DNA of 64,000 nt from an uncultured Chloroflexia bacterium. GTDB lineage: Bacteria > Chloroflexota > Limnocylindria > Limnocylindrales > CSP1-4. The stretch lies in the NCBI GenBank assembly GCA_963746845.1, contig CAVVCZ010000004.1, positions 704,001 through 768,000 on the forward strand. The letters run 5' to 3'. The notes beneath the pieces are model-generated. The model was given only the letters and a program-made list of their open reading frames with translations. It searched no databases and was not told the DNA's origin. The translations under genes were made by a program, and so were the position numbers. Each line of letters opens with the position of its first letter. Within the stretch, counting starts at the first letter, position 1. Below are positions 14,445 through 25,018 of the stretch, one piece after another.

Positions 14445-15341
14445 ATGGCGGGTCTGGAGACGCTGGCGATTCGCACCCCGGACGGCCGGACGCTGGAGTG
14501 TCACGTCGCCGGCCCGCCCGACGGCGACGTGCTCCTGTTCCACGACGGCACGCCCGGCAGCGGGCTGCCACCGGACGCATTCGTCGAGACCGCAGCCGCC
14601 CGGAACCTCCGGTCCGTCACCTTCGCCCGGCCGGGTTACGCGACATCGACCCGACGACCGGGCCGGAGCGTCGCGGACGTTGCCGAGGACGCCGTGGCGG
14701 TCCTCGACCACTTCGGGGCCGATCGGTGCTTCACGATGGGCGCCTCGGGCGGCGGCCCGCACGCGCTGGCGTGTGCCGCGCTGATCCCGGAACGCGTCCG
14801 GGCCACGACCGTCATCGCGGGTGTCGCCCCGTTCGGGGCGGTGGGGCTCGACTTCCTCGCGGGCATGGCGCCGGAGAACGTCGAGGAGTTCGGCGCCGCG
14901 GTCGAGGGGTCGGACGCGCTCGTGGCGTTCCTGAGCGGTGCCGCGCAGGCCTTCGCCAATGTGACCGGAGCCGAGATCGCGGACGCGTTCGGCGGGCTCG
15001 TGTCCCCGGTCGACCACGCCGCTCTCACCGACGACTTCGCCGACGCCGTCGCGGCGGACGTCCGCAACGCGCTCTCGAGCGGGATCTGGGGCTGGCACGA
15101 CGACGACCTCGCGTTCGCCGCGCCATGGGGCTTCGACCCGGCCGGGATCACGGGCCAGGTCGACCTCTGGCAGGGCGAGCAGGATCGGATGGTCCCGTTC
15201 GCCCATGGCGTTTGGCTCGCGGCCAACGTCGGCCACGCTCGAGCGCACCTGCTACCCGACCATGGGCACCTGTCCCTGCAGGTCGCGCTCCTCGGCCCGA
15301 TCCTCGACGTGATGCTCGCGGGTGCCGAGATCAGCGCCTGA
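14445..15341 (+). CDS. Alpha/beta-fold hydrolase
   Basis: HDGTPGS, GASGGG nucleophile elbow, WQGEQD and GHLS; GAGGAGGG RBS. Confidence 0.9.
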   Translation: MAGLETLAIRTPDGRTLECHVAGPPDGDVLLFHDGTPGSGLPPDAFVETAAARNLRSVTFARPGYATSTRRPGRSVADVAEDAVAVLDHFGADRCFTMGASGGGPHALACAALIPERVRATTVIAGVAPFGAVGLDFLAGMAPENVEEFGAAVEGSDALVAFLSGAAQAFANVTGAEIADAFGGLVSPVDHAALTDDFADAVAADVRNALSSGIWGWHDDDLAFAAPWGFDPAGITGQVDLWQGEQDRMVPFAHGVWLAANVGHARAHLLPDHGHLSLQVALLGPILDVMLAGAEISA

Positions 15342-15422
15342 CCGAGGGCTAGACGCGCGTCCATGCCGGGCGCGGGCGTTCGTCCGTGGTGATGGGCCGA
15401 GCACGACCGCAGCATGTCGGCC

Positions 15423-15716
15423 ATGGACCCAACGGCTGTTCTGACCGCCATCGCGGCACTCGTCATCGTGTCGACCATCATCACCGCCACGATCCGTGTC
15501 CTGGCGGACGCCTCCGAGGACAGCGGGTTCGCGATCCTGTTCGCTCCGCTCGTGAAGGGTCTGTCGCCAAAGCCCGGGCCGGTCGTCCGGGAGCCTGAGC
15601 CGACGGCGTGGCGCTTCGACCTGATGAAGCCTCGGATGAGCGCGCCCGACCCGATCGCCCGGCCGACAACGGTCCCCCAAAAGGTCCGCTCCGGCGCCGG
15701 GTTCGCGCGGCCCTGA
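15423..15716 (+). CDS. Small membrane protein, hypothetical
   Basis: Single N-terminal hydrophobic helix; host-like codon use. Confidence 0.55.
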   Translation: MDPTAVLTAIAALVIVSTIITATIRVLADASEDSGFAILFAPLVKGLSPKPGPVVREPEPTAWRFDLMKPRMSAPDPIARPTTVPQKVRSGAGFARP

Positions 15717-15797
15717 ACCTATCGTCTCGCTGCCTGTCGGGGTTGGCCGAGACCGCGACTTGACCAAGGTGGACTAACCCCGCAGGCTCCTGCCGTC

Positions 15798-16127
15798 ATG
15801 TCCGAGCCTGTGAATATCCACGACTCGAAGATGCACCTGTCGCGTCTTGTCGAGCGCGTGGAGGCCGGCGAGGAGATCGTCCTGGCCCGGGCCGGACGCC
15901 CGGTGGCCCGACTCGTGCCGTATCGGGGCAGGCGCGAGCCACGCGTGCCCGGGGGCTGGAAGGGCCGGGCGGACCCACTCGACCGGATGCTGGTCGCCCA
16001 GGCCGAAACCCTGGGAGCCACGATCGTCTCGCGCGACGTCGCACTCGACGCGTACGGCATCAACCCTGCTGACGGCCTGAGGCGGCTGTCCTACGAGAGC
16101 ATGGGATCGTCGGCCCGCCAGATGTAG
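15798..16127 (+). pseudogene. Phd/YefM antitoxin fused in frame to the C-terminal fragment of a VapC/PIN toxin
   Basis: VNIHDSKMHLSRLVERVEAGEEIVLARAGRPVARLVP (Phd) runs directly into DPLDRMLVAQAETLGATIVSRD..LDAYGI (PIN C-terminus). Confidence 0.8.
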
Positions 16128-16606
16128 ATCGGCTCGACGCCGTGGGCACCGAGCAGCTGCGAGACCTCGCCGATGTGGTAGCCGTCGTGGGTCAGGAGCC
16201 GCTGCAGGATCGAGGCGCGCGAGTGGCGCTGGACGACGTCGCGGAAGGTGCGATCGACCCGCTCGTCGAGCCTGTCCGGCGTCCATGCGTCCAGGACGCG
16301 ATCGAGGATCGCGTACGTCGACTCGAGGGCGAACACGAGCTCGGCCGCCGAGCGCGGGTGGTCGAGGTCATCCTCCCAGCCGTCCTCGGGCAGGTCCGGC
16401 CACGGCGTCTGCTCGGCACCGGGCTCGCCGAGGATGGTGGCCAGCCAGTACAGTCGCGAACCGGCCATGTGCGCCAGGATCGCCCAGATCGGCCACTGAT
16501 CCGCGGCCGCTCGCCACGCCAGCTGCTCGTCCGTGAGCGTGGACACGACGTCGATGATGCGCTGGTGGTATTGCGGCCACCGGTCGTAGTAGCGGCGGAT
16601 GCTCAT
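16091..16606 (-). CDS. DinB-family protein
   Basis: WAILAHMAG ... LTHDGYHIGEVSQLLG His triad; likely start MSIRRYY at 16606. Confidence 0.85.
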   Translation of the reverse strand: MSIRRYYDRWPQYHQRIIDVVSTLTDEQLAWRAAADQWPIWAILAHMAGSRLYWLATILGEPGAEQTPWPDLPEDGWEDDLDHPRSAAELVFALESTYAILDRVLDAWTPDRLDERVDRTFRDVVQRHSRASILQRLLTHDGYHIGEVSQLLGAHGVEPIYIWRADDPMLS

Positions 16607-16651
16607 CGCCTCATGATGATGCGCGTCGCTCTCGCCTGCGATCCCAGCGCA

Positions 16652-16679
16652 ACTTCCGATAAGAGAAGTTATGTCCGTC
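16652..16679 (+). other. dif-like XerC/XerD recombination site
   Basis: ACTTCCGATAA-GAGAAG-TTATGTCCGTC has the 11-6-11 layout with inner ATAA/TTAT and the TTATGT XerD core; it is an AT-rich patch in GC-rich DNA. Confidence 0.55.
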
Positions 16680-18186
16680 ATGTGAACTCGGGCCAGACTG
16701 CCGAGGCTCGACCCCTGATCTTTGCCGATAGCAAGCGTGAACCCGCGTAGCGATTGATGACATCAGCGACGTGTCTCCCGCGCGTGTTGGCGTTGGCAGA
16801 TTGAAGCGCGACCAGCGCGGCCTCGGCGACCTCCTTGACATCAAGCGACTCGCGCGCGATGAAGTCGTGGTCGGATCCATCGCCGAGCTTCCCGAGCAAG
16901 AGCGCTGCGAACTGTCGAACTTCGATGCCGGCATTTCGGTTCGCGAGGGTGACTCTCGCCCGCGCCAGGAGGATCCGCTCGCATCGCGTGCCAGACAACA
17001 TGGCACGAAAGAGGTTCATTTCCTCCCATTCGGAGATGTTGTCCGGAGAAACGAGGTGGGAAGCGACCGCTCGTTGAACGCTCGCTCGCGTTGCAAAGCG
17101 CGACAGATACCGGGCCACGGTAGACGCCAGGTAGTCAAGTTCCCCGAGTCGAGCGAGGCACCACTTGATGGCAACAGGGTCCCTGTTGTCGGTGAGTCGT
17201 CCCAGGAGATATTTGAGCTCACGACGCGGCAACGGTGTCTTGCGTCTGGAGAACTCCTTCCATGCCTTCTTGACCAGGGGAGCCGCAACGATTTTGGCCC
17301 GCTGCCTGACCACGTAGTCGATCGCCGCAATCTCGTCCTCGTCACTGACGGCCGCAATCATTTCGGCCCTGCCTACCACGAGTTCGGTCTTTGCGGACTG
17401 GACGAGTAGATCGAGGCGTCTGGCCTCGGCCTCGAGAAGCCTTAGCGCCTTCTTCGCGTCGGTCCTGTCCTTCGCCAGGACGTATATGTCATCGACGTAC
17501 CTAACGTATCCGTAACCTGCCCCAATAAGCGCCTGATCGAGCGGATGGAGGTACACACTCGCTAGAAGTCCGGACGGATCCGGACCTTGAGGAAGTCCCA
17601 CGGCCCTACCCATTGAATCCTTAAGGAACGTCCTCAGCTCGCGCGCCACATCATCTCGTACGCCAAGAGAGGTAAGGCGTGCCTCAAGCTGACCGTGTGG
17701 GATGCGCTCGTAGAAGGCCGCCAGATCCGTTCGAACCATGGCTCCGTACTTGACGGACTTGACTTCGGCACGCAGTTGCGTCCGGAAGCGCTTCCACTGT
17801 GAAAGCCCGAAGCCGAAAGGGGCTTTGGTGGAGCGCCGAGCCATAGGTCTGTAGCCGAAGACGTGGTTCTTCCCAACCAGACCTCTATCGATGTCGTACA
17901 TGAACGAGTCGACCAGAGCCTGGTAGTACAGCCGACTATCCACGGTCATTTGGTGTGCCGGACGCATGAGGCCGTTTGGCTTCGGGATCAAGGCCTCGCG
18001 GGCTCGCGGGGCACGCATTCGGCCATCGCGAAACGGGGCAAGCCGCCTTCTTGCGGCGACGAATTCGGGCCGCTCCCTTGGCACCATGGCCAGACTCAAA
18101 GGATCGGGCCACAAGTCGTCCCAGGCGTCCTGGCGGATCCGCCGCGCAGCGCGCCCGAGGGTAAGTCTGACTCGCTTGGCTGGCAT
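16678..18186 (-). CDS. Reverse transcriptase (UG/Abi/DRT-like) with helical C-terminal extension
   Basis: IPKPNGLMRP, TDLAAFYERI, GLPQG...LASVYL, RYVDD and SAKT; C-terminal ~220 aa appears helical-repeat-like; lower GC than neighbouring genes. Confidence 0.92.
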   Translation of the reverse strand: MPAKRVRLTLGRAARRIRQDAWDDLWPDPLSLAMVPRERPEFVAARRRLAPFRDGRMRAPRAREALIPKPNGLMRPAHQMTVDSRLYYQALVDSFMYDIDRGLVGKNHVFGYRPMARRSTKAPFGFGLSQWKRFRTQLRAEVKSVKYGAMVRTDLAAFYERIPHGQLEARLTSLGVRDDVARELRTFLKDSMGRAVGLPQGPDPSGLLASVYLHPLDQALIGAGYGYVRYVDDIYVLAKDRTDAKKALRLLEAEARRLDLLVQSAKTELVVGRAEMIAAVSDEDEIAAIDYVVRQRAKIVAAPLVKKAWKEFSRRKTPLPRRELKYLLGRLTDNRDPVAIKWCLARLGELDYLASTVARYLSRFATRASVQRAVASHLVSPDNISEWEEMNLFRAMLSGTRCERILLARARVTLANRNAGIEVRQFAALLLGKLGDGSDHDFIARESLDVKEVAEAALVALQSANANTRGRHVADVINRYAGSRLLSAKIRGRASAVWPEFT

Positions 18187-20129
18187 CAGCTATGGCGGGC
18201 CTGATCACCAGCGCCGTAGTCGGCGACTCTCTCAGCGGCGGCCGTGAGTGATCCCTGTGGTCGATCCAACCGGGACACGAAGAAGTCGCGAGTCGGGGCG
18301 TCCACGAAGTAGACGTAGCAGCCGAGCAGGCCGCGCGTCAGCAGCACACGGTAGGTGCTCTTCACGAACTCGGTGAACTCCACCCCGGTCACGCCACTGC
18401 GGACGACCCGGTCGCTTGACTGGTCGCGCTGGCCGACCCATCCCCCATCCATCGGCCGGTACACCAGATCTGGGCCGAAGATCACCCCGACGTAGTCGAA
18501 CTCGAAGCCCTGCGCTGTGTAGACGCAGCCGACCTGGTTGATGCCTTCCTTCGCGCTCGCCCAGAAATCCGACTTCGGGATGCCGGGGCCGAGCTTCCGG
18601 GCGTCGGACTTGGCATTCCAGGGCATGGACCACTCCCCCACCCTGACGTCCGGCACGAGCTCGCCGGCCTCGTCCGGATCGGACCAGGGCCAGCAGAAGC
18701 CGGCGACGAGCCGGGCCGTCGAGCCCGTGGCGGCGCGGCCCCGGATCAGTTGGTCGAGGTCGCCGACGGTCCCGATGATCCGGAAGTCGAAGTCGTCGTC
18801 CATCGGCCAGAGGACCTGCGGTGTCCGATCGAGTTCGAGCGTGTTGTCGATCCAGCGGATGAACGAGTCCGAGCCATTCGAACGAAACTGCGCCTCGAGC
18901 TCGAACTCGCGGACCTCGAGGCCGCGCTTGGCGGCCGCCTCCCGGATCGAGTCGGTGCTGCCCGTCTCACCGGGTCGGACAACCTGAAGGTCGTCGATGA
19001 AGAACACCGACACTCGCGTGGAATCGAGGATGTCTTCCATCTGGGTCTTGCCAGTTCGTGCCGACGCCGGCGTGAAGCGACTCGTGCTGACCGACCGGAT
19101 CCGGTGGGCTTCGTCGAGGATGACAACGTCGAGCGGCTCATCGACGGTTGCGGTGTCGCGGAAGTACTTGAAGAGCACGCTTGCTCGGCCGCCGACGATC
19201 TTGCGGAGATTCTCGGTGAACGCCTTCGAGCCGGTGACGTGGATCGTCCGGAGGCCGAGCGATGCCAGCTCGGCAACGAGGTTGACCGCCAAGACCGACT
19301 TCCCGGTCCCAGGCCCGCCGGCAACGATGAACGCAACCTTGTGCTGGTTCTGACCGGCCGATCGGACCGAATCCATGACCGCGTTGTAGGCGACCTGCTG
19401 CTCGTCCAGGAGCGTGAAGACGGGTTCGTTGCGGATGACCCGGGCGACGTGGTCGAGCAAGCGCTTATGCGGCCGGAAGGCCGAGTTGGCGACGCGCTCC
19501 AGGATCAAGCCGCCCTCGTCGGGGCCAGCGACACGATCATCGAGGTAATTGGCGAGGGCGTCAGTATCGTCGCCTGAGAAGCTCGGGTTCGTTGCCAGGA
19601 GGCTCGCGAAATCCTTGCCGTAAAGCGGTGAGGCAGGGTCGTGGGTCGCGTAGTGAAGATAGGCGCACGCGTCGAGCGAGATGCCGCCGTCGGTGAATGC
19701 CGGGTGGGTGTCCAACAGGTATCGCTGGTACTGCGCGACCTGCCGCGACGGGTGGAGGCGATCGACCTCGCGCCCGCCCATGTCGACCGTCACGCAGTCG
19801 GTGATGTTCGACCGACCGACGCTGGTCCACTGCTTCAGCTCAACGATGACCGCCGTGTCCCTCGTAGTCGGGTTGGATCCGGTGATCAAGACGTCGAGGC
19901 GTTTCGAAGAGAGCGGCAGCTTGAGCTCGACGAGGACGCCCTGGTCGCGGAGATCGGCCAACTGCATGACGTTGGCCATAGCGCCGAGCGAGTTCCGCCA
20001 CGACATGACCTCGGACGGCGAGGGCTTGTAGCGGAACTCCTGGAAGAATCGATCGGCGAGCTGATTCGCAAGTCGCGCTTGCACGGCGTCTGCGATGAAC
20101 TGCTCGCTCGTGCCCTGGTAGAGGTGCAA
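18186..20129 (-). CDS. DUF2075 / Schlafen group 3-like helicase with N-terminal PD-(D/E)XK-type nuclease domain
   Basis: VELKLP..RLDVL..VIVELKQW; Walker A GGPGTGKS; Walker B ILDEAHR; VGCVYTAQGFEFD; YRVLLTRG; TTG start after AGAGGGA. Confidence 0.88.
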   Translation of the reverse strand: MHLYQGTSEQFIADAVQARLANQLADRFFQEFRYKPSPSEVMSWRNSLGAMANVMQLADLRDQGVLVELKLPLSSKRLDVLITGSNPTTRDTAVIVELKQWTSVGRSNITDCVTVDMGGREVDRLHPSRQVAQYQRYLLDTHPAFTDGGISLDACAYLHYATHDPASPLYGKDFASLLATNPSFSGDDTDALANYLDDRVAGPDEGGLILERVANSAFRPHKRLLDHVARVIRNEPVFTLLDEQQVAYNAVMDSVRSAGQNQHKVAFIVAGGPGTGKSVLAVNLVAELASLGLRTIHVTGSKAFTENLRKIVGGRASVLFKYFRDTATVDEPLDVVILDEAHRIRSVSTSRFTPASARTGKTQMEDILDSTRVSVFFIDDLQVVRPGETGSTDSIREAAAKRGLEVREFELEAQFRSNGSDSFIRWIDNTLELDRTPQVLWPMDDDFDFRIIGTVGDLDQLIRGRAATGSTARLVAGFCWPWSDPDEAGELVPDVRVGEWSMPWNAKSDARKLGPGIPKSDFWASAKEGINQVGCVYTAQGFEFDYVGVIFGPDLVYRPMDGGWVGQRDQSSDRVVRSGVTGVEFTEFVKSTYRVLLTRGLLGCYVYFVDAPTRDFFVSRLDRPQGSLTAAAERVADYGAGDQARHS

Positions 20130-20168
20130 GCGCTTCCCTCTCTTCGCCCGCCGGTCGATGCGCCACTG

Positions 20169-20174
20169 ACTATA
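20169..20174 (-). promoter_or_regulatory. Putative -10 element (TATAGT) for the helicase-RT unit
   Basis: TATAGT on the minus strand about 40 nt upstream of TTG 20129; no clear -35. Confidence 0.4.
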
Positions 20175-20373
20175 GCCGCGCCAAAGTCGTCATCTCGACC
20201 TTGTGGAATGCCGCGTCGGACCCGTTCATTGCGGAACTAAAGTTGACAATTCGTAAGGCTGCTCTCCCTCTCGCGAGTACCCATGGAACTCGCTTCGCAA
20301 CCCGCGATCTACGGGCGATCGACGGCGATCCCCGCGCCCCTCACGGGTCGAGCGTCGTGGCATCCTCCCGCGA

Positions 20374-20943
20374 GTGATGACCAGATACCTCGTCCTCCTG
20401 CGCGGCATCAACGTCGGCGGACGGAACAAGGTGCCGATGGCGGCGCTGCGCGAGCTCCTCGAGTCGCACGGCCACACGAAGGTCTCCACGTACATTGCCA
20501 GCGGCAACGTGATCCTGAGCTCGGACCGCACGGCGACCGCGATCAAGCGTGAGCTCGAGGACGCGCTCCCTCGGACGTTCAAGCTCGACAGCGAGCTCAT
20601 CGCGGTCCTCGTCCTGACGCTCGCTCAGCTGCGGGCCGTCGTCCGGGATCGGCCGAAGGGCTTCGGCGACAAGCCCGACACGTACCACAGCGACGCGGTC
20701 TTCCTCATGGGGATCGACACGCCGACGGCGATGAAGGTCTTCGACCCGCGGCCGGGCGTCGACGAGGTGTGGCCGGGCAAGGGCGTGATCTACTCGCAGC
20801 GGCTGAGCGCCGAGAGGACGAAGAGCCGCCTGGGCAAGATCGTCGGGACGCCGGCGTACAAGTCGATGACGATCCGCGGCTGGGCGACGACCATGGCGCT
20901 GCTCGAGCGCATGGAGGCGTCCGAGGCTGAGGCCGAGGCCTGA
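20374..20943 (+). CDS. DUF1697-family protein
   Basis: LLRGINVGGRNKVPMA, TYIASGNV and C-terminal TIRGW. Confidence 0.9.
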   Translation: MMTRYLVLLRGINVGGRNKVPMAALRELLESHGHTKVSTYIASGNVILSSDRTATAIKRELEDALPRTFKLDSELIAVLVLTLAQLRAVVRDRPKGFGDKPDTYHSDAVFLMGIDTPTAMKVFDPRPGVDEVWPGKGVIYSQRLSAERTKSRLGKIVGTPAYKSMTIRGWATTMALLERMEASEAEAEA

Positions 20944-22207: not shown

Positions 22208-22289
22208 GCGCCGCAATCACGATTACGCCGAGCGGGTGGTCGCCGTCAAGCCATCCACGGAATTGGAACGGCGCGTCTATTGTTCGCGC

Positions 22290-23246
22290 GTGATCGAGCC
22301 GCCGACCCGCACAGAGCTTGAAGCCGCGCTCTGCTGGGACGCCAGTGACCTCGTTCCGCGGCGCCCGGCGATGACGGCATTCCGGCAGCGGACCCGGCTG
22401 CACCAGGCGCGATGGCGCGAGCGCGAGGGTCACCCGATCGGGTCCCAGCCGTACGCGCCGCGTCCGGGCGTCGATCCGAGGCCGGTCGGGAGCCGGATCC
22501 CGCTCGTATACGGCCGCGACACCGGGGCGAACTTCGTGACGACGGCCGCACTCGATGCGGTCGAGGCCCGGACGGCGATCATCGAGCGCGAGCAGAGCAT
22601 CGATCAGCAGGGCCTCTGGGCGGACCTGCTCTCCTCCGAGGCGCTCGCGTTCAATCTGTTCGGTGACCTCGCCGCCGACCCCACGCGGGCAGACAGCCTC
22701 GTCCACGCCTGGTTCGGCGATGCACCCGGCCGCGTCGTGGAGGTTCGGTTTCTCCACTCGCCCGGGCGCCTCGAGGCGCAGTGGCTCAACAGCCTGCGGC
22801 AATTCGACGCGGCCTTTGTCCTCTCGCGGGAGGACGGATCGCACGGCATCGTGGCGGTCGACGTGACCTACCACGAGCGCCTGAAGGCGGAGACGCCGAA
22901 GCCCGAGAACCTCTGGCGCAACCGCGAGGTCCACGAGCGATCGGCTGCGTTCCGGCCCGAGGCGTTCGACCGGGTGAAGGGTCGCAGCGACCTGTGGTCC
23001 CCGTGGCTCGAGCACCTCCTGCTGCTGTCGATGCTCCAGCACCCGGGCGGCGCCTGGACATGGGGGAGGTACCTGACCATTCATGCGGCCGACAACGTCG
23101 AGATGGCCGACCGCTCCGAGCGCTACGCCGGGCTGCTCGCGGACGCGACGACGTTCTTGTCGACCACGCTCGAGGAGGTCCTCGGGACCGGAGCGCTCCC
23201 CTCCCCCGCGGTTCGGGCCCTCCGGGATCGCTACCTGGCGCGGTAG
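22290..23246 (+). CDS. PGN_0703-like putative restriction-endonuclease-fold protein
   Basis: DLLSSEALAFNLFG and FDAAF...VAVDVTYHE resemble that family; -10 TATTGT 6 nt before the GTG. Confidence 0.6.
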   Translation: MIEPPTRTELEAALCWDASDLVPRRPAMTAFRQRTRLHQARWREREGHPIGSQPYAPRPGVDPRPVGSRIPLVYGRDTGANFVTTAALDAVEARTAIIEREQSIDQQGLWADLLSSEALAFNLFGDLAADPTRADSLVHAWFGDAPGRVVEVRFLHSPGRLEAQWLNSLRQFDAAFVLSREDGSHGIVAVDVTYHERLKAETPKPENLWRNREVHERSAAFRPEAFDRVKGRSDLWSPWLEHLLLLSMLQHPGGAWTWGRYLTIHAADNVEMADRSERYAGLLADATTFLSTTLEEVLGTGALPSPAVRALRDRYLAR

Positions 23247-23362: not shown

Positions 23363-23466
23363 CTGGCCGACAAAGGCAAACCCGGGGTGACCCGGGGACG
23401 CAAAGCCACGGGACTCGCGCGGTTGGTCCGGACCGGCGCGTCGAGTCAGCCGGGTTGCCGAAGTCA
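23363..23466 (+). promoter_or_regulatory. Cyclic di-GMP-I (GEMM) riboswitch
   Basis: AAAGGCAAACCCGGG-GTGA-CCCGGGGACGCAAAGCCACGGG...AGCCGGGTTGCCGA matches the GEMM consensus; P1 CTGGC/GTCAG abuts the AGGAGG RBS. Confidence 0.9.
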
Positions 23467-23678: not shown

Positions 23679-25018
23679 ATGCGCATCGCCGGCCTCGTGA
23701 TGCTTGTCGCCGCCTTCGTCGTCGGCTGTTCGGGCTCAACCGGCACTCCCCCGGCGACCGCCACTGCGACCACGTCGGCGTCTGCGGCTGCCGCAAGCAC
23801 CGCACCGGAGGACCTCGGGGGCGCACACGTCCACGTCCTCGGCCTCTGGAGCGGCCCCGAGTTCGAGAGCTTCGAAGCCGTCAAGTCGGCCTGGGAGCGA
23901 CGAGACCGGGGCGATCGTCGACTGGGAGGCCACGACCGACCTGCCCGGTGCCCTGGCCGAACACAAGCAGGCGGGAGATCCACCGGACATCGCGATCCTG
24001 CCGAACCTGGCGCTGATGGAGCAGCTCGCCGAGAAACGGGGCCCTGATCCCGCTCGACTCGGTCCTGGACATGACGAACGTCGCCAGGGACTACGCGCCG
24101 GCATGGATCGACCTTGGCAGCCACGCCGGGAAGCTGTACGGGATCTTCTACAAGGTCACGAACAAGGCGGCGGTCTGGTACAGCCCGAAGGCCTTCGTTG
24201 CTGCCGGCTACGACGTTCCCGCGACCTGGGACGCGATGATCACGCTGGCCGACCGGATGGTTGCCGACGGCCGCACACCCTTCTCGGTCGTCGCCGCGAA
24301 GGGCCCGGCGAGCGGCTGGGCGCTCACCGACTGGATCTCGGAGATCGTGCTCAACGCCTGCGGCCCGGATCTCTACGACCAGTGGATCGCCGGCGACATT
24401 CCCTGGAACCACGCATGCATCAAGGGATCATTCGACAGGTTCGCGAAGATCGTCGCGACCAATGGATACGTCCTCGGAGGCAGCCAGCGCATCATCGCGA
24501 CCGGTGACGACGTCGCGGCAGACCCGCTGTACACGGACCCGCCGACCGCCTGGCTGTGCTATCTCGCGTCGTTCGCCCAGGCATTCATCGCCTCGAGCCA
24601 CCCCGACCTGGAGCCCGGCACGGACTACGACGTCTTCGGGTTCCCGACGATCAATCCCGAGTACGGGGAAGCCGTCACGGTCGGCGCCGACATCCCGGTG
24701 ATGATCGGCGACACCCCCGCCGCTCGCTCGTTCATGTCGTACCTCGCGAGCGCCCGAGCACAGGAGGCATGGATCCGGCTCGGCGGCTTCACCTCCGTGA
24801 ATCGAAACGTGTCGGCGGCCACCTACCCGGATCCGGTGGCGCGACGGGTGGCCGACGAGCTGACCGAGGCAACGGTCGTCCGGTTCAGCGCCGGCGACAT
24901 GATGCCGTCGTCCCTGCAACGGGCCTGGTGGGGAGCGATGCTGGACCTCGTCCAGGATCCGGGCCGGGTGGACGCGATCCTCGATGGCCTGACCGCGGCC
25001 GCCCGGAGCGCCCGTTAG
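23679..25018 (+). CDS. ABC sugar-binding lipoprotein (AglE-like), two frameshifts near 23900 and 24040
   Basis: Lipobox VVGC; GDPPDIAILP, LYGIFYK..NKAAVWY and GWALTDWISEIVL are spread over three frames; no cognate permease nearby. Confidence 0.82.

Follow-up and report, generated by a model that had tools for sequence, protein, structure and literature searches.

A Nhi-like nuclease–helicase gene and a Class 1 UG/Abi reverse transcriptase gene at a cargo hot spot: more likely neighbours on a common transcript than a proven two-part system

Whether two tightly packed genes work together as one antiphage system or act separately from a common transcript was the question raised by this locus. 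It lies in a 64,000-nt stretch of DNA from an uncultured Chloroflexia bacterium (the whole of this stretch is called the window), in which an initial annotation had proposed a two-gene defence system made of a DUF2075 nuclease–helicase and a reverse transcriptase (RT). Both ORFs were recovered on the minus strand at the positions given in Table 1, and the annotated overlap of the two genes was read directly in the sequence, where the junction is ...agcTGATGcca.... The ATG start of the RT was supported, because RT homologs of 500–502 aa covered the query from residue 1. The sigma-70-like promoter match was the only such site in the interval 15300–20700, against 0.4 expected, and is a weak consensus match. 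No terminator-like site between the helicase, RT and DinB genes was found in the scan of the same interval, and repeats flanking the helicase–RT pair gave chance-level matches only. One 151-nt read-assembled contig (run X3) spanned the junction at 18186. The sequencing-run contigs were short and of low depth, and no RT-less variant at 18186 was seen among them, with cover too thin to judge.

Table 1. Positions of the features of the locus in the window, with the domains of the two proteins in residue numbers.
Feature	Position	Strand	Description
Helicase ORF	18186–20129	minus	647 aa, TTG start
RT ORF	16678–18186	minus	502 aa, ATG start
TGATG overlap	18184–18188	minus	one base common to helicase stop and RT start
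DinB_2 family gene	16091–16606	minus	171 aa counted from M26; host-like neighbour
Sigma-70-like promoter match	20169–20198	minus	about 40 nt upstream of helicase start
PD-(D/E)XK nuclease domain	about residues 1–235 of the 647-aa protein		N-terminal to the DUF2075/SLFN-g3 SF1B helicase
RT core	about residues 55–272 of the 502-aa RT		
Helical-repeat C-terminal domain	residues 273–490 of the RT		14 helices in the model, pLDDT mostly 84–94 from residue 330 on

The upstream protein was matched to Pfam PF09848 (SLFN-g3_helicase, formerly DUF2075) over residues 264–610 with an E-value of 1.7e-82 and 278 bits. The residues E68, D79, E97, K99, Q100 and W101 of the nuclease domain, together with the Walker A motif (G271–S278) and the DEAH motif (339–342), were invariant in 32 homologs of 40–88% identity, and the same residues were also invariant in 22 sequences reaching down to 25% identity. 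In the structure model (pLDDT 80.4), D79, E97 and K99 were located on the predicted beta strands 79–86 and 90–99, and the top Foldseek matches were RecD, RecD2, Dda, SLFN11 and Dna2. The nuclease and helicase domains named in the initial annotation were thus confirmed, and an N-terminal PD-(D/E)XK nuclease domain joined to a DUF2075 SF1B helicase domain in one protein is the architecture of Nhi and Nhi-like proteins. The possibility that the helicase owed its C-terminal tail to a cassette was also considered, and it was ruled out because the tail in this genome (G000) has the family's usual ...AAE....Y... pattern.

The RT was matched to the Pfam family RVT_1 at 2.4e-18 and to the profiles of UG groups. 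In an alignment of 14 homologous sequences, D154, the PQG motif (199–201), the YVDD motif (230–233) and K266 were conserved. Full-length Foldseek matches of the RT model (pLDDT 77.2) included DRT6, DRT4/UG15, AbiK, Abi-P2 and AbiA, and the closest solved folds were 9wy8 (TMq 0.56) and then 9vdo, 9l9s, 7r07 and 7r08. The protein belongs to the Class 1 UG/Abi reverse transcriptases, and its catalytic core is intact. Furthermore, Tyr112 was invariant and was positioned in a conserved flexible loop (residues 105–128) according to the homolog alignment and the model, and it is a candidate priming residue. A VTG motif was not seen in the RT sequence, the retron_St85 model gave 27 bits (cut-off 235), and no retron RNA was found by Rfam in the window. 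The group II intron RT/maturase model TIGR04416 gave 75 bits (cut-off 300), and the NCBIfam models Drt2 to Drt5 and Drt3b gave 17–47 bits against cut-offs of 200–550. The description of the RT in the initial annotation, as an enzyme of UG/Abi type with intact motifs and a helical C-terminal extension that is neither a retron RT with VTG nor a maturase, was correct. The lineage is rare, with only 45 cluster representatives at an E-value of 1e-30 or lower in a set of 1.84 billion, and the nearest RT in the protein collection was 80% identical.

The gene directly 3′ of the helicase was recorded at 30 genomic loci where the helicase gene was complete or almost so. It was an RT at three of them. 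The other neighbours comprised ABC-3C CTD6, HamA-like, NT5C (two loci), HNH_2 (two), HATPase_c_3 (two), UvrD, HTH, Zn-ribbon, DUF805 and an unknown protein, and no partner family recurred between loci save for matching ORFs in a few locus pairs. An RT beside the helicase homolog was absent at the remaining 27 genomic loci, at all five viral-contig loci and at the four plasmid loci inspected (of 37 plasmid records). The surroundings in these plasmid records were RM genes, Cas3, a second DUF2075 gene and transposases, and the helicase homologs of the four plasmid records and five viral contigs lay among defence genes. At 15 of these loci, the 3′ neighbour began at an offset between −37 and +25 nt, indicating that many neighbours were packed as tightly as the RT. 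Moreover, no partner-specific co-evolution was visible: among helicases 82–91% identical to this one, the adjoining gene was variously another RT, an ABC-3C CTD6 gene or an unknown ORF. The slot immediately 3′ of the helicase stop is exchangeable, and the defence-type gene that occupies it differs from genome to genome. Helicase homologs paired with other genes, and RT homologs that are solitary or have unrelated partners, had been named in the initial annotation as the outcome that would speak against a system, and this was largely what these genomic, viral and plasmid loci and the RT context described below presented.

A true two-gene system was weighed against these counts. In such a system, the protein-linked single-stranded DNA of the Class 1 RT would be kept trimmed by the Nhi-like protein until phage proteins interfere, or would load or activate that protein, and RTs of different UG groups would be able to fill the role. 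The overlap of stop and start codons is consistent with this arrangement. A UG13a-like RT, unrelated to the present RT, fills the identical slot in genomes G009 and G814. The RVT_1 search of 43 genomes of the genus gave three RT genes only, of which one belonged to a group II intron, and both non-intron RTs (in G000 and G009, of different UG types) start at the end of the helicase gene. In addition, the helicase, the UG13a-like RT and a Mrr-like nuclease were kept together in two genera, with identities of 72–86%, 64–79% and 49–59%, respectively. However, G009 and G814 carry this trio at the same chromosomal locus, so that it may represent a single inherited event. With other neighbours at 27 of the 30 helicase loci, a dedicated pair of this kind is possible but rather unlikely.

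The gene contexts of RT relatives also argued against a required partner. The one relative with readable gene context, the RT of genome G829 (43% identity over the full length), had as neighbours unknown genes, DUF3800 and Exo_endo_phos, with no helicase adjoining, and the DUF2075 remnants of that genome lay only on another contig. An intact UG13a-like RT in genome G556 was flanked by genes of the MmeI-type RM, OLD-family and DACNV kinds, and DUF2075 was not found in that genome. These contexts suggest that relatives of the RT do not need the helicase. When contig sizes were compared, no contig was common to the 17 close RT homologs and the 120 closest helicase homologs, a comparison that distant or partial helicases could escape. 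Scans of genome contigs and of metagenome contigs gave no RT relatives other than one of 27% and one of 28% identity, respectively, and no DUF2075 was found near either. No RT relatives were found in viral contigs, and those on plasmids reached at most 34% identity and belonged to other UG groups.

The composition and age of the two genes were then compared. The GC3 value was 0.70 for the RT, 0.86 for the helicase, 0.82–0.95 for the neighbours and 0.93 for the DinB gene. The RT alone is compositionally foreign at the locus, which counts against a two-gene unit; that the RT is richer in AT than the host and the helicase more host-like had already been noted in the initial annotation. Genomes G018, G458, G009 and G814 had a helicase ortholog in the syntenic position (HflX-MBL-Lipo15 ... 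DUF1697-S51), and helicase fragments remained in six further genomes of the genus. These syntenic orthologs and fragments, together with its host-like GC3, mark the helicase as resident at the locus across the genus and as predating the RT. Over its final 150 nt, the helicase gene in this genome was 0.77–0.80 alike to the genes in G458 and G009, which were 0.87 alike to each other; hence, the 3′ end of the helicase could have arrived with the RT, which would count against two separate genes. The helicase gene of this genome is mosaic elsewhere too. The single-gene architecture of Nhi and Nhi-like, the G829 RT without a helicase and the helicase homologs without an RT left the proposed two-gene system only partly supported; the presence of an unrelated UG RT behind the helicase in G009 and G814 still favoured it.

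Gene decay is rapid at this hot spot, as is seen in the helicase fragments and in frame breaks within the RTs of G009 and G814; the frame breaks may be assembly errors, since these genomes are long-read MAGs. Such decay would fit a reading in which the RT is a passenger or a decaying relic without current function, or has a non-defence role, and Mestre et al. (2022, PMC9226505) found no conclusive link to defence for UG21, UG32 and UG13a. Against it, the RT reading frame is unbroken and retains all of its catalytic motifs, and the 17 close homologs (P0003–P0019, 58–80% identical) have kept their full length with 70% mean column identity. This reading is considered improbable.

A DinB_2 gene directly downstream of the RT (Pfam DinB_2, 9.4e-16) was absent from the initial annotation. 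A three-gene operon, with the DinB-fold protein as a functional third component, might be imagined because all three genes lie on one strand without a terminator-like site between them and the annotated 196-aa DinB ORF overlaps the RT stop as ATGA. This overlap probably reflects an over-extended start, because DinB homologs have 166–171 aa and align from residue 23–26, and a start at M26 leaves a 71-nt gap after the RT stop. The GC3 of the gene is host-like, the family is very common (1586 matches, and 36 of the 43 genus genomes have a member elsewhere), and this DinB copy has a 94% identical match in the protein collection, compared with 80% for the nearest RT. The DinB gene probably belongs to no system; as a third component it was rejected on the gap, the GC3 and the commonness of the family, and the operon is regarded as highly improbable. 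Two contig-size coincidences between DinB and RT (1648 and 1916) were dismissed on gene size and on source, respectively.

The helicase and the RT are therefore more likely neighbours on a common transcript than a proven two-part system. The reading favoured here, with a modest degree of confidence, is that two autonomous single-gene antiphage genes adjoin each other at a cargo hot spot and are co-expressed. By analogy with Nhi, the SF1B helicase would move on phage DNA, and its PD-(D/E)XK domain would cut that DNA. The slot behind the helicase would have received a foreign RT gene of Class 1 UG/Abi type. No promoter-like site was found for the RT itself, so it is probably expressed from the helicase promoter through read-through and translational coupling. 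The RT may then act alone, as DRT4, DRT6 and AbiK do, and may make protein-primed, untemplated single-stranded DNA, which could turn toxic once phage DNA-binding proteins protect it. In this form, the locus provides a worked example of a conserved Nhi-like gene that anchors a slot where defence genes exchange, and it warns that overlapping gene pairs at such hot spots are not automatically systems.

No system-level match for the helicase–RT pair was obtained with PADLOC and NCBIfam, and no description of it was found in literature searches, which agrees with the initial annotation, where the pairing was not recognised among described DRT or retron systems. The helicase shares with Nhi (Bari et al., 2022) and Nhi-like (Millman et al., 2022) the layout of PD-(D/E)XK nuclease and DUF2075 SF1B helicase in one protein and the occurrence of homologs in defence islands. 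Both are reported as single-protein antiphage defences (preprints 10.1101/776245 and 10.1101/2022.05.11.491447), and Millman et al. (2022) describe the two as without sequence identity to each other. The present helicase differs from Nhi in matching the PADLOC Nhi model over residues 240–425 only, with 47 bits; the AbiO model gave 42 bits, and a model named Nhi-like was absent among its PADLOC matches.

The PADLOC scores of the RT were 228 bits for UG32, 220 bits for UG21 and 198 bits for UG23. In a calibration of the UG models, true members scored 310–560 bits on their own model (reference-like members, 490–560 bits on UG32 and 310–393 bits on UG21), and this RT scored 215–243 bits. It resembles these three groups (Mestre et al., 2022, PMC9226505) in its size of about 500 aa and in its layout of a core followed by a C-terminal helical-repeat domain, but its scores on UG32 and UG21 were near-equal and below the range of true members. 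Judged by these profile scores, the RT falls outside every calibrated PADLOC UG group, in a lineage next to UG21, UG32 and UG23. Its match to the UG32 model begins at position 45 of 521 and no HTH was found in the Pfam search, whereas UG32 RTs are reported by Mestre et al. (2022, PMC9226505) to have a fused HTH.

The closest solved folds were those of the single-gene Class 1 RTs DRT4 (UG15), DRT6, AbiK and Abi-P2, at 11–15% sequence identity, and the self-sufficiency of these RTs speaks for an RT that acts alone; the NCBIfam Drt4 model gave 40 bits against a cut-off of 450. In DRT4 (Tyr125, D240/D241) as in this RT (Tyr112, D232/D233), the catalytic DD is preceded at a distance of about 115–120 residues by a conserved Tyr; the HMMER alignment covers RT residues 193–268 only, and a correspondence of the two Tyr would be by spacing rather than by alignment. 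DRT4 is described as a single-gene system, and its DNA product as controlled by a host exonuclease, in PMC12783706; the latter point is in favour of a helicase–RT link. The same holds for UG34, likewise a Class 1 UG RT adjoining a nuclease–helicase fusion gene: according to Mestre et al. (2022, PMC9226505), 7 of 17 UG34 RTs adjoin a NERD-nuclease/helicase gene (cluster 485), which would mean that nuclease–helicases and Class 1 RTs recur together. It might thus be proposed, as an unlikely and tentative generalization, that a nuclease–SF1 helicase and a Class 1 UG/Abi RT form a recurrent modular two-component defence with swappable RT groups (UG32/21-like here, UG13a-like in G009 and G814, UG34 in the literature), in which the helicase–nuclease would read or police the protein-primed single-stranded DNA of the RT. 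If the link is real, an effector or regulator would be gained for RTs now thought to act alone. The present pair differs from the UG34 case in that the RT scored only 71 bits on the UG34 model and that the nuclease of the UG34 partner is called NERD in that source.

The gene pair lies on contig C4 of a metagenome-assembled, 92%-complete genome of 3.56 Mb (G000), in a window with a GC content of 70.5%. The observation made in the initial annotation was confirmed, because both ORFs, their overlap, and the domains and motifs of the two proteins were found as described. The end of the DUF2075 nuclease-helicase (helicase) ORF and the start of the reverse transcriptase (RT) ORF overlapped in TGATG. 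In a scan of 15300-20700, one promoter-like site was located upstream of the helicase and no terminator-like site was detected throughout; these results are consistent with co-transcription, which they weakly suggest.

Coordinates of the gene pair, of nearby features in the window and of a comparable trio in two other genomes
Feature	Location	Strand	Details
Helicase ORF	18186-20129	minus	647 aa, TTG start
RT ORF	16678-18186	minus	502 aa, ATG start
Phd/YefM antitoxin-like ORF	15798-16127	+	3' end overlaps end of convergent DinB gene
PDDEXK_13 / REase-ARP-like nuclease gene	22236-23246	+	Pfam 2.1e-55; 2 kb from helicase, same low-GC stretch
c-di-GMP-I-GGC riboswitch (Rfam RF03167)	23366-23463	+	66.9 bits vs gathering score 59
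Trio: Nhi-like helicase, UG13a-like RT, Mrr_cat-domain protein	L023 7952-10992 (G009:C12); L122 7591-12459 (G814:C3)		

According to homolog comparison, the true start of the downstream DinB_2 gene was M26, 71 nt past the RT stop. The deposited 196-aa product (P0275; extra part 16604-16681, minus) seemed to begin 25 codons early, and its homologs had 166-171 aa. DinB_2 is a very common family, carried elsewhere in 36 of the 43 genus genomes; the gene is probably not part of the RT-helicase feature. No toxin partner of the Phd/YefM-like ORF was evident at its place in the window, and homologs of this ORF occurred in the genome G029, about 7 kb from a helicase fragment. The riboswitch was upstream of ORFs including a solute-binding protein gene (24071-25018).

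The helicase domain matched Pfam PF09848 (SLFN-g3_helicase, formerly DUF2075; 1.7e-82). The N-terminal domain motif D79...E97-x-K99, the Walker A motif (271-278) and the DEAH motif (339-342) did not vary among 32 homologs (40-88% identity), nor among 22 sequences including plasmid homologs of 25-46% identity. The predicted structure (pLDDT 80.4) resembled RecD, RecD2, Dda, SLFN11 and the nuclease-helicase Dna2. The family was large: of 8000 candidates scored, 7173 matched at E <= 1e-10, and identity was 66-90% for the top 120. A loose ...SR.ER......AAE....Y.. pattern in the disordered C-terminal tail (P0001 residues 617-647) was kept across most of 120 homologs (P0021-P0140). The helicase tail of the genus member G009 was without this pattern, and its ORF continued into the RT gene.

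The RT contained an RVT_1 domain (Pfam), conserved catalytic motifs and, in the predicted structure, a helical C-terminal domain, as had been described. Its nearest solved folds were hexameric DRT6, DRT4/UG15, AbiK, Abi-P2 and AbiA. The top PADLOC models were RT_UG32 (228 bits), UG21 (220) and UG23 (198), and these scores were calibrated with representatives from an exhaustive HMMER search. On their own models, true UG32 members scored 490-560 bits, one UG23 427, UG9 394-496 and UG21-like members 310-393, whereas the RT, like three relatives that were 70%, 45% and 41% identical to it, gave just 215-243 bits, without preference between UG32 and UG21. On these sequence scores, we assign the RT to Class 1 of the UG/Abi RTs, in a lineage of its own outside the named groups that neighbours UG21, UG32 and UG23; the proposed UG/Abi type stood. 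In the parts of Mestre et al. 2022 (PMC9226505) cited here, Class 1 comprises RTs fused to alpha-helical repeats, and the defence role of UG21, UG32 and UG13a is counted inconclusive. The lineage was rare: a search of 5.8 billion protein clusters yielded 17 proteins at 58-80% identity, 45 cluster representatives had E <= 1e-30 among 1.84 billion, and no member was found among 60 related genomes.

Full or nearly full helicase homologs were present at 29 loci from 61 relatives, 401 phylum genomes and 401 class genomes, and a 30th locus (G814) was found from the RT side. These genome sets were draws from larger groups, with many incomplete MAGs, and the counts take in two genomes flagged unpublished, G656 (locus L071, one of the 30) and G010 (genus tallies). 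An RT directly followed the helicase at three of the 30 loci (G000, G009 and G814). In G458, whose helicase was 90% identical, the next gene was ABC-3C CTD6; elsewhere it was HamA-like, NT5C, HNH_2 or HATPase_c_3 (two loci each of the last three), UvrD, HTH, Zn-ribbon, DUF805 or an unknown protein. Except for paired matching ORFs in a few locus pairs, these genes had no family in common, and many were packed as tightly as the RT. No RT was found beside helicase homologs on five of five viral contigs, or beside the four plasmid homologs inspected from 37 records, which lay among RM, Cas3 and transposase genes. On the Hymenobacter canadensis plasmid NZ_CP114769.1 (L040 1904-5890), tandem DUF2075 genes adjoined DNA methyltransferase and DUF4747 genes. 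The NT5C-type 5'-deoxynucleotidase gene overlapped the helicase-homolog stop by 4 nt in G678 (L062 783-1505) and G770 (L064 888-1505), two genomes of one genus, and may be another pairing of interest.

In the converse survey, which started from the RT, 31 of the 401 family genomes contained a match to the RT_UG21 model. Among the 29 loci checked besides G000, a helicase was upstream only in G009 and G814. The G829 RT (43% identical, full length) was surrounded by unknown proteins, DUF3800 and Exo_endo_phos, and DUF2075 remained in that genome only as remnants on another contig. These were three C-terminal fragments on G829:C69 (L127 5989-6519, 7902-8300 and 12227-12619) among PIN, HipA-like, GAF-kinase and type I RM/IS21 genes. 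In G556, the genes around an intact UG13a-like RT were of the MmeI-type RM, OLD-family and DACNV kinds, and no DUF2075 was found in the genome. Hence, the pattern named beforehand as contrary to a joint system, RTs with unrelated partners and helicases beside other genes, was largely seen.

The helicase is resident at the locus. In the genus (G018, G009 and others), it was flanked by an HflX-MBL-Lipo15 side and a DUF1697-S51 side, and fragments of it were left in six further genomes. Homology between genomes stopped near helicase codon 620, and the cargo beyond differed genome by genome. The RT alone was compositionally foreign: its GC3 was 0.70, lower than that of the helicase (0.86), DinB (0.93) and the neighbours (0.82-0.95), in agreement with the earlier description of the RT as more AT-rich than the host and of the helicase as more host-like. 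Over its final 150 nt, the helicase gene of G000 was somewhat more divergent than in relatives; this hints weakly that the RT may have arrived with a piece of a donor's helicase gene. Extra DUF2075 C-terminal fragments downstream of intact copies (L065 4175-4555, L073 4034-4348, L066 66-258 and L030 6-146), like the three fragments in G829, resemble traces left when cargo was exchanged through recombination in the gene's conserved 3' part.

We lean towards two autonomous defence genes in one transcript at a cargo hot spot, because the slot takes many defence genes, this helicase type and the structural kin of the RT work alone, and the inspected RT relatives lacked the helicase. A functional module of RT and nuclease-helicase, as initially proposed, is the less likely reading, most helicase loci and inspected RT relatives being unpaired, but RTs recurred in this slot (G000, G009 and G814) beyond the expectation for a random neighbour. 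RVT_1 identified three RT genes in the 43 genus genomes, of which that of G036 was a group II intron RT (371 bits vs cut-off 300); the other two, in G000 and G009, were of different UG types and each started where this helicase gene ends. The best model for the G009 RT was RT_UG13a (192 and 119 bits for two pieces). Moreover, G009 and G814, the latter of another genus, shared the trio at one syntenic position; the helicases were 72-86% identical, the RTs 64-79% and the Mrr-like nucleases 49-59%. The RTs of both genomes and the G814 helicase contained frame breaks, which may be assembly errors. A NERD-nuclease/helicase gene is likewise placed beside 7 of 17 UG34 RTs in the cited part of Mestre et al. 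2022 (PMC9226505). However, the two trios may represent one inherited event, and a hot spot by itself predicts adjacency.

If the RT works as DRT4 does, its DNA synthesis would be tyrosine-primed and untemplated, with a single-stranded product. DRT4 is described in the cited part of its source as a single-gene system with priming residue Tyr125 and catalytic D240/D241 (PMC12783706). Tyr112 of the RT did not vary among 14 homologs, and the 43% relative also has it. It falls 120 residues ahead of YVDD, within a conserved loop that was modelled with low confidence; no alignment connected it to DRT4 Tyr125. The helicase, by analogy with Nhi, might unwind and cut phage DNA. In the portions of the preprints cited, Nhi (Bari et al., 10.1101/776245) and the Nhi-like system (Millman et al., 10.1101/2022.05.11.491447) are single-protein antiphage defences, and in both, as in the protein described here, a PD-(D/E)XK nuclease at the N-terminus is fused to a DUF2075 helicase. 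The PADLOC Nhi model matched the helicase weakly (47 bits); we therefore use the term Nhi-like for its domain architecture and do not place it in the family on sequence.
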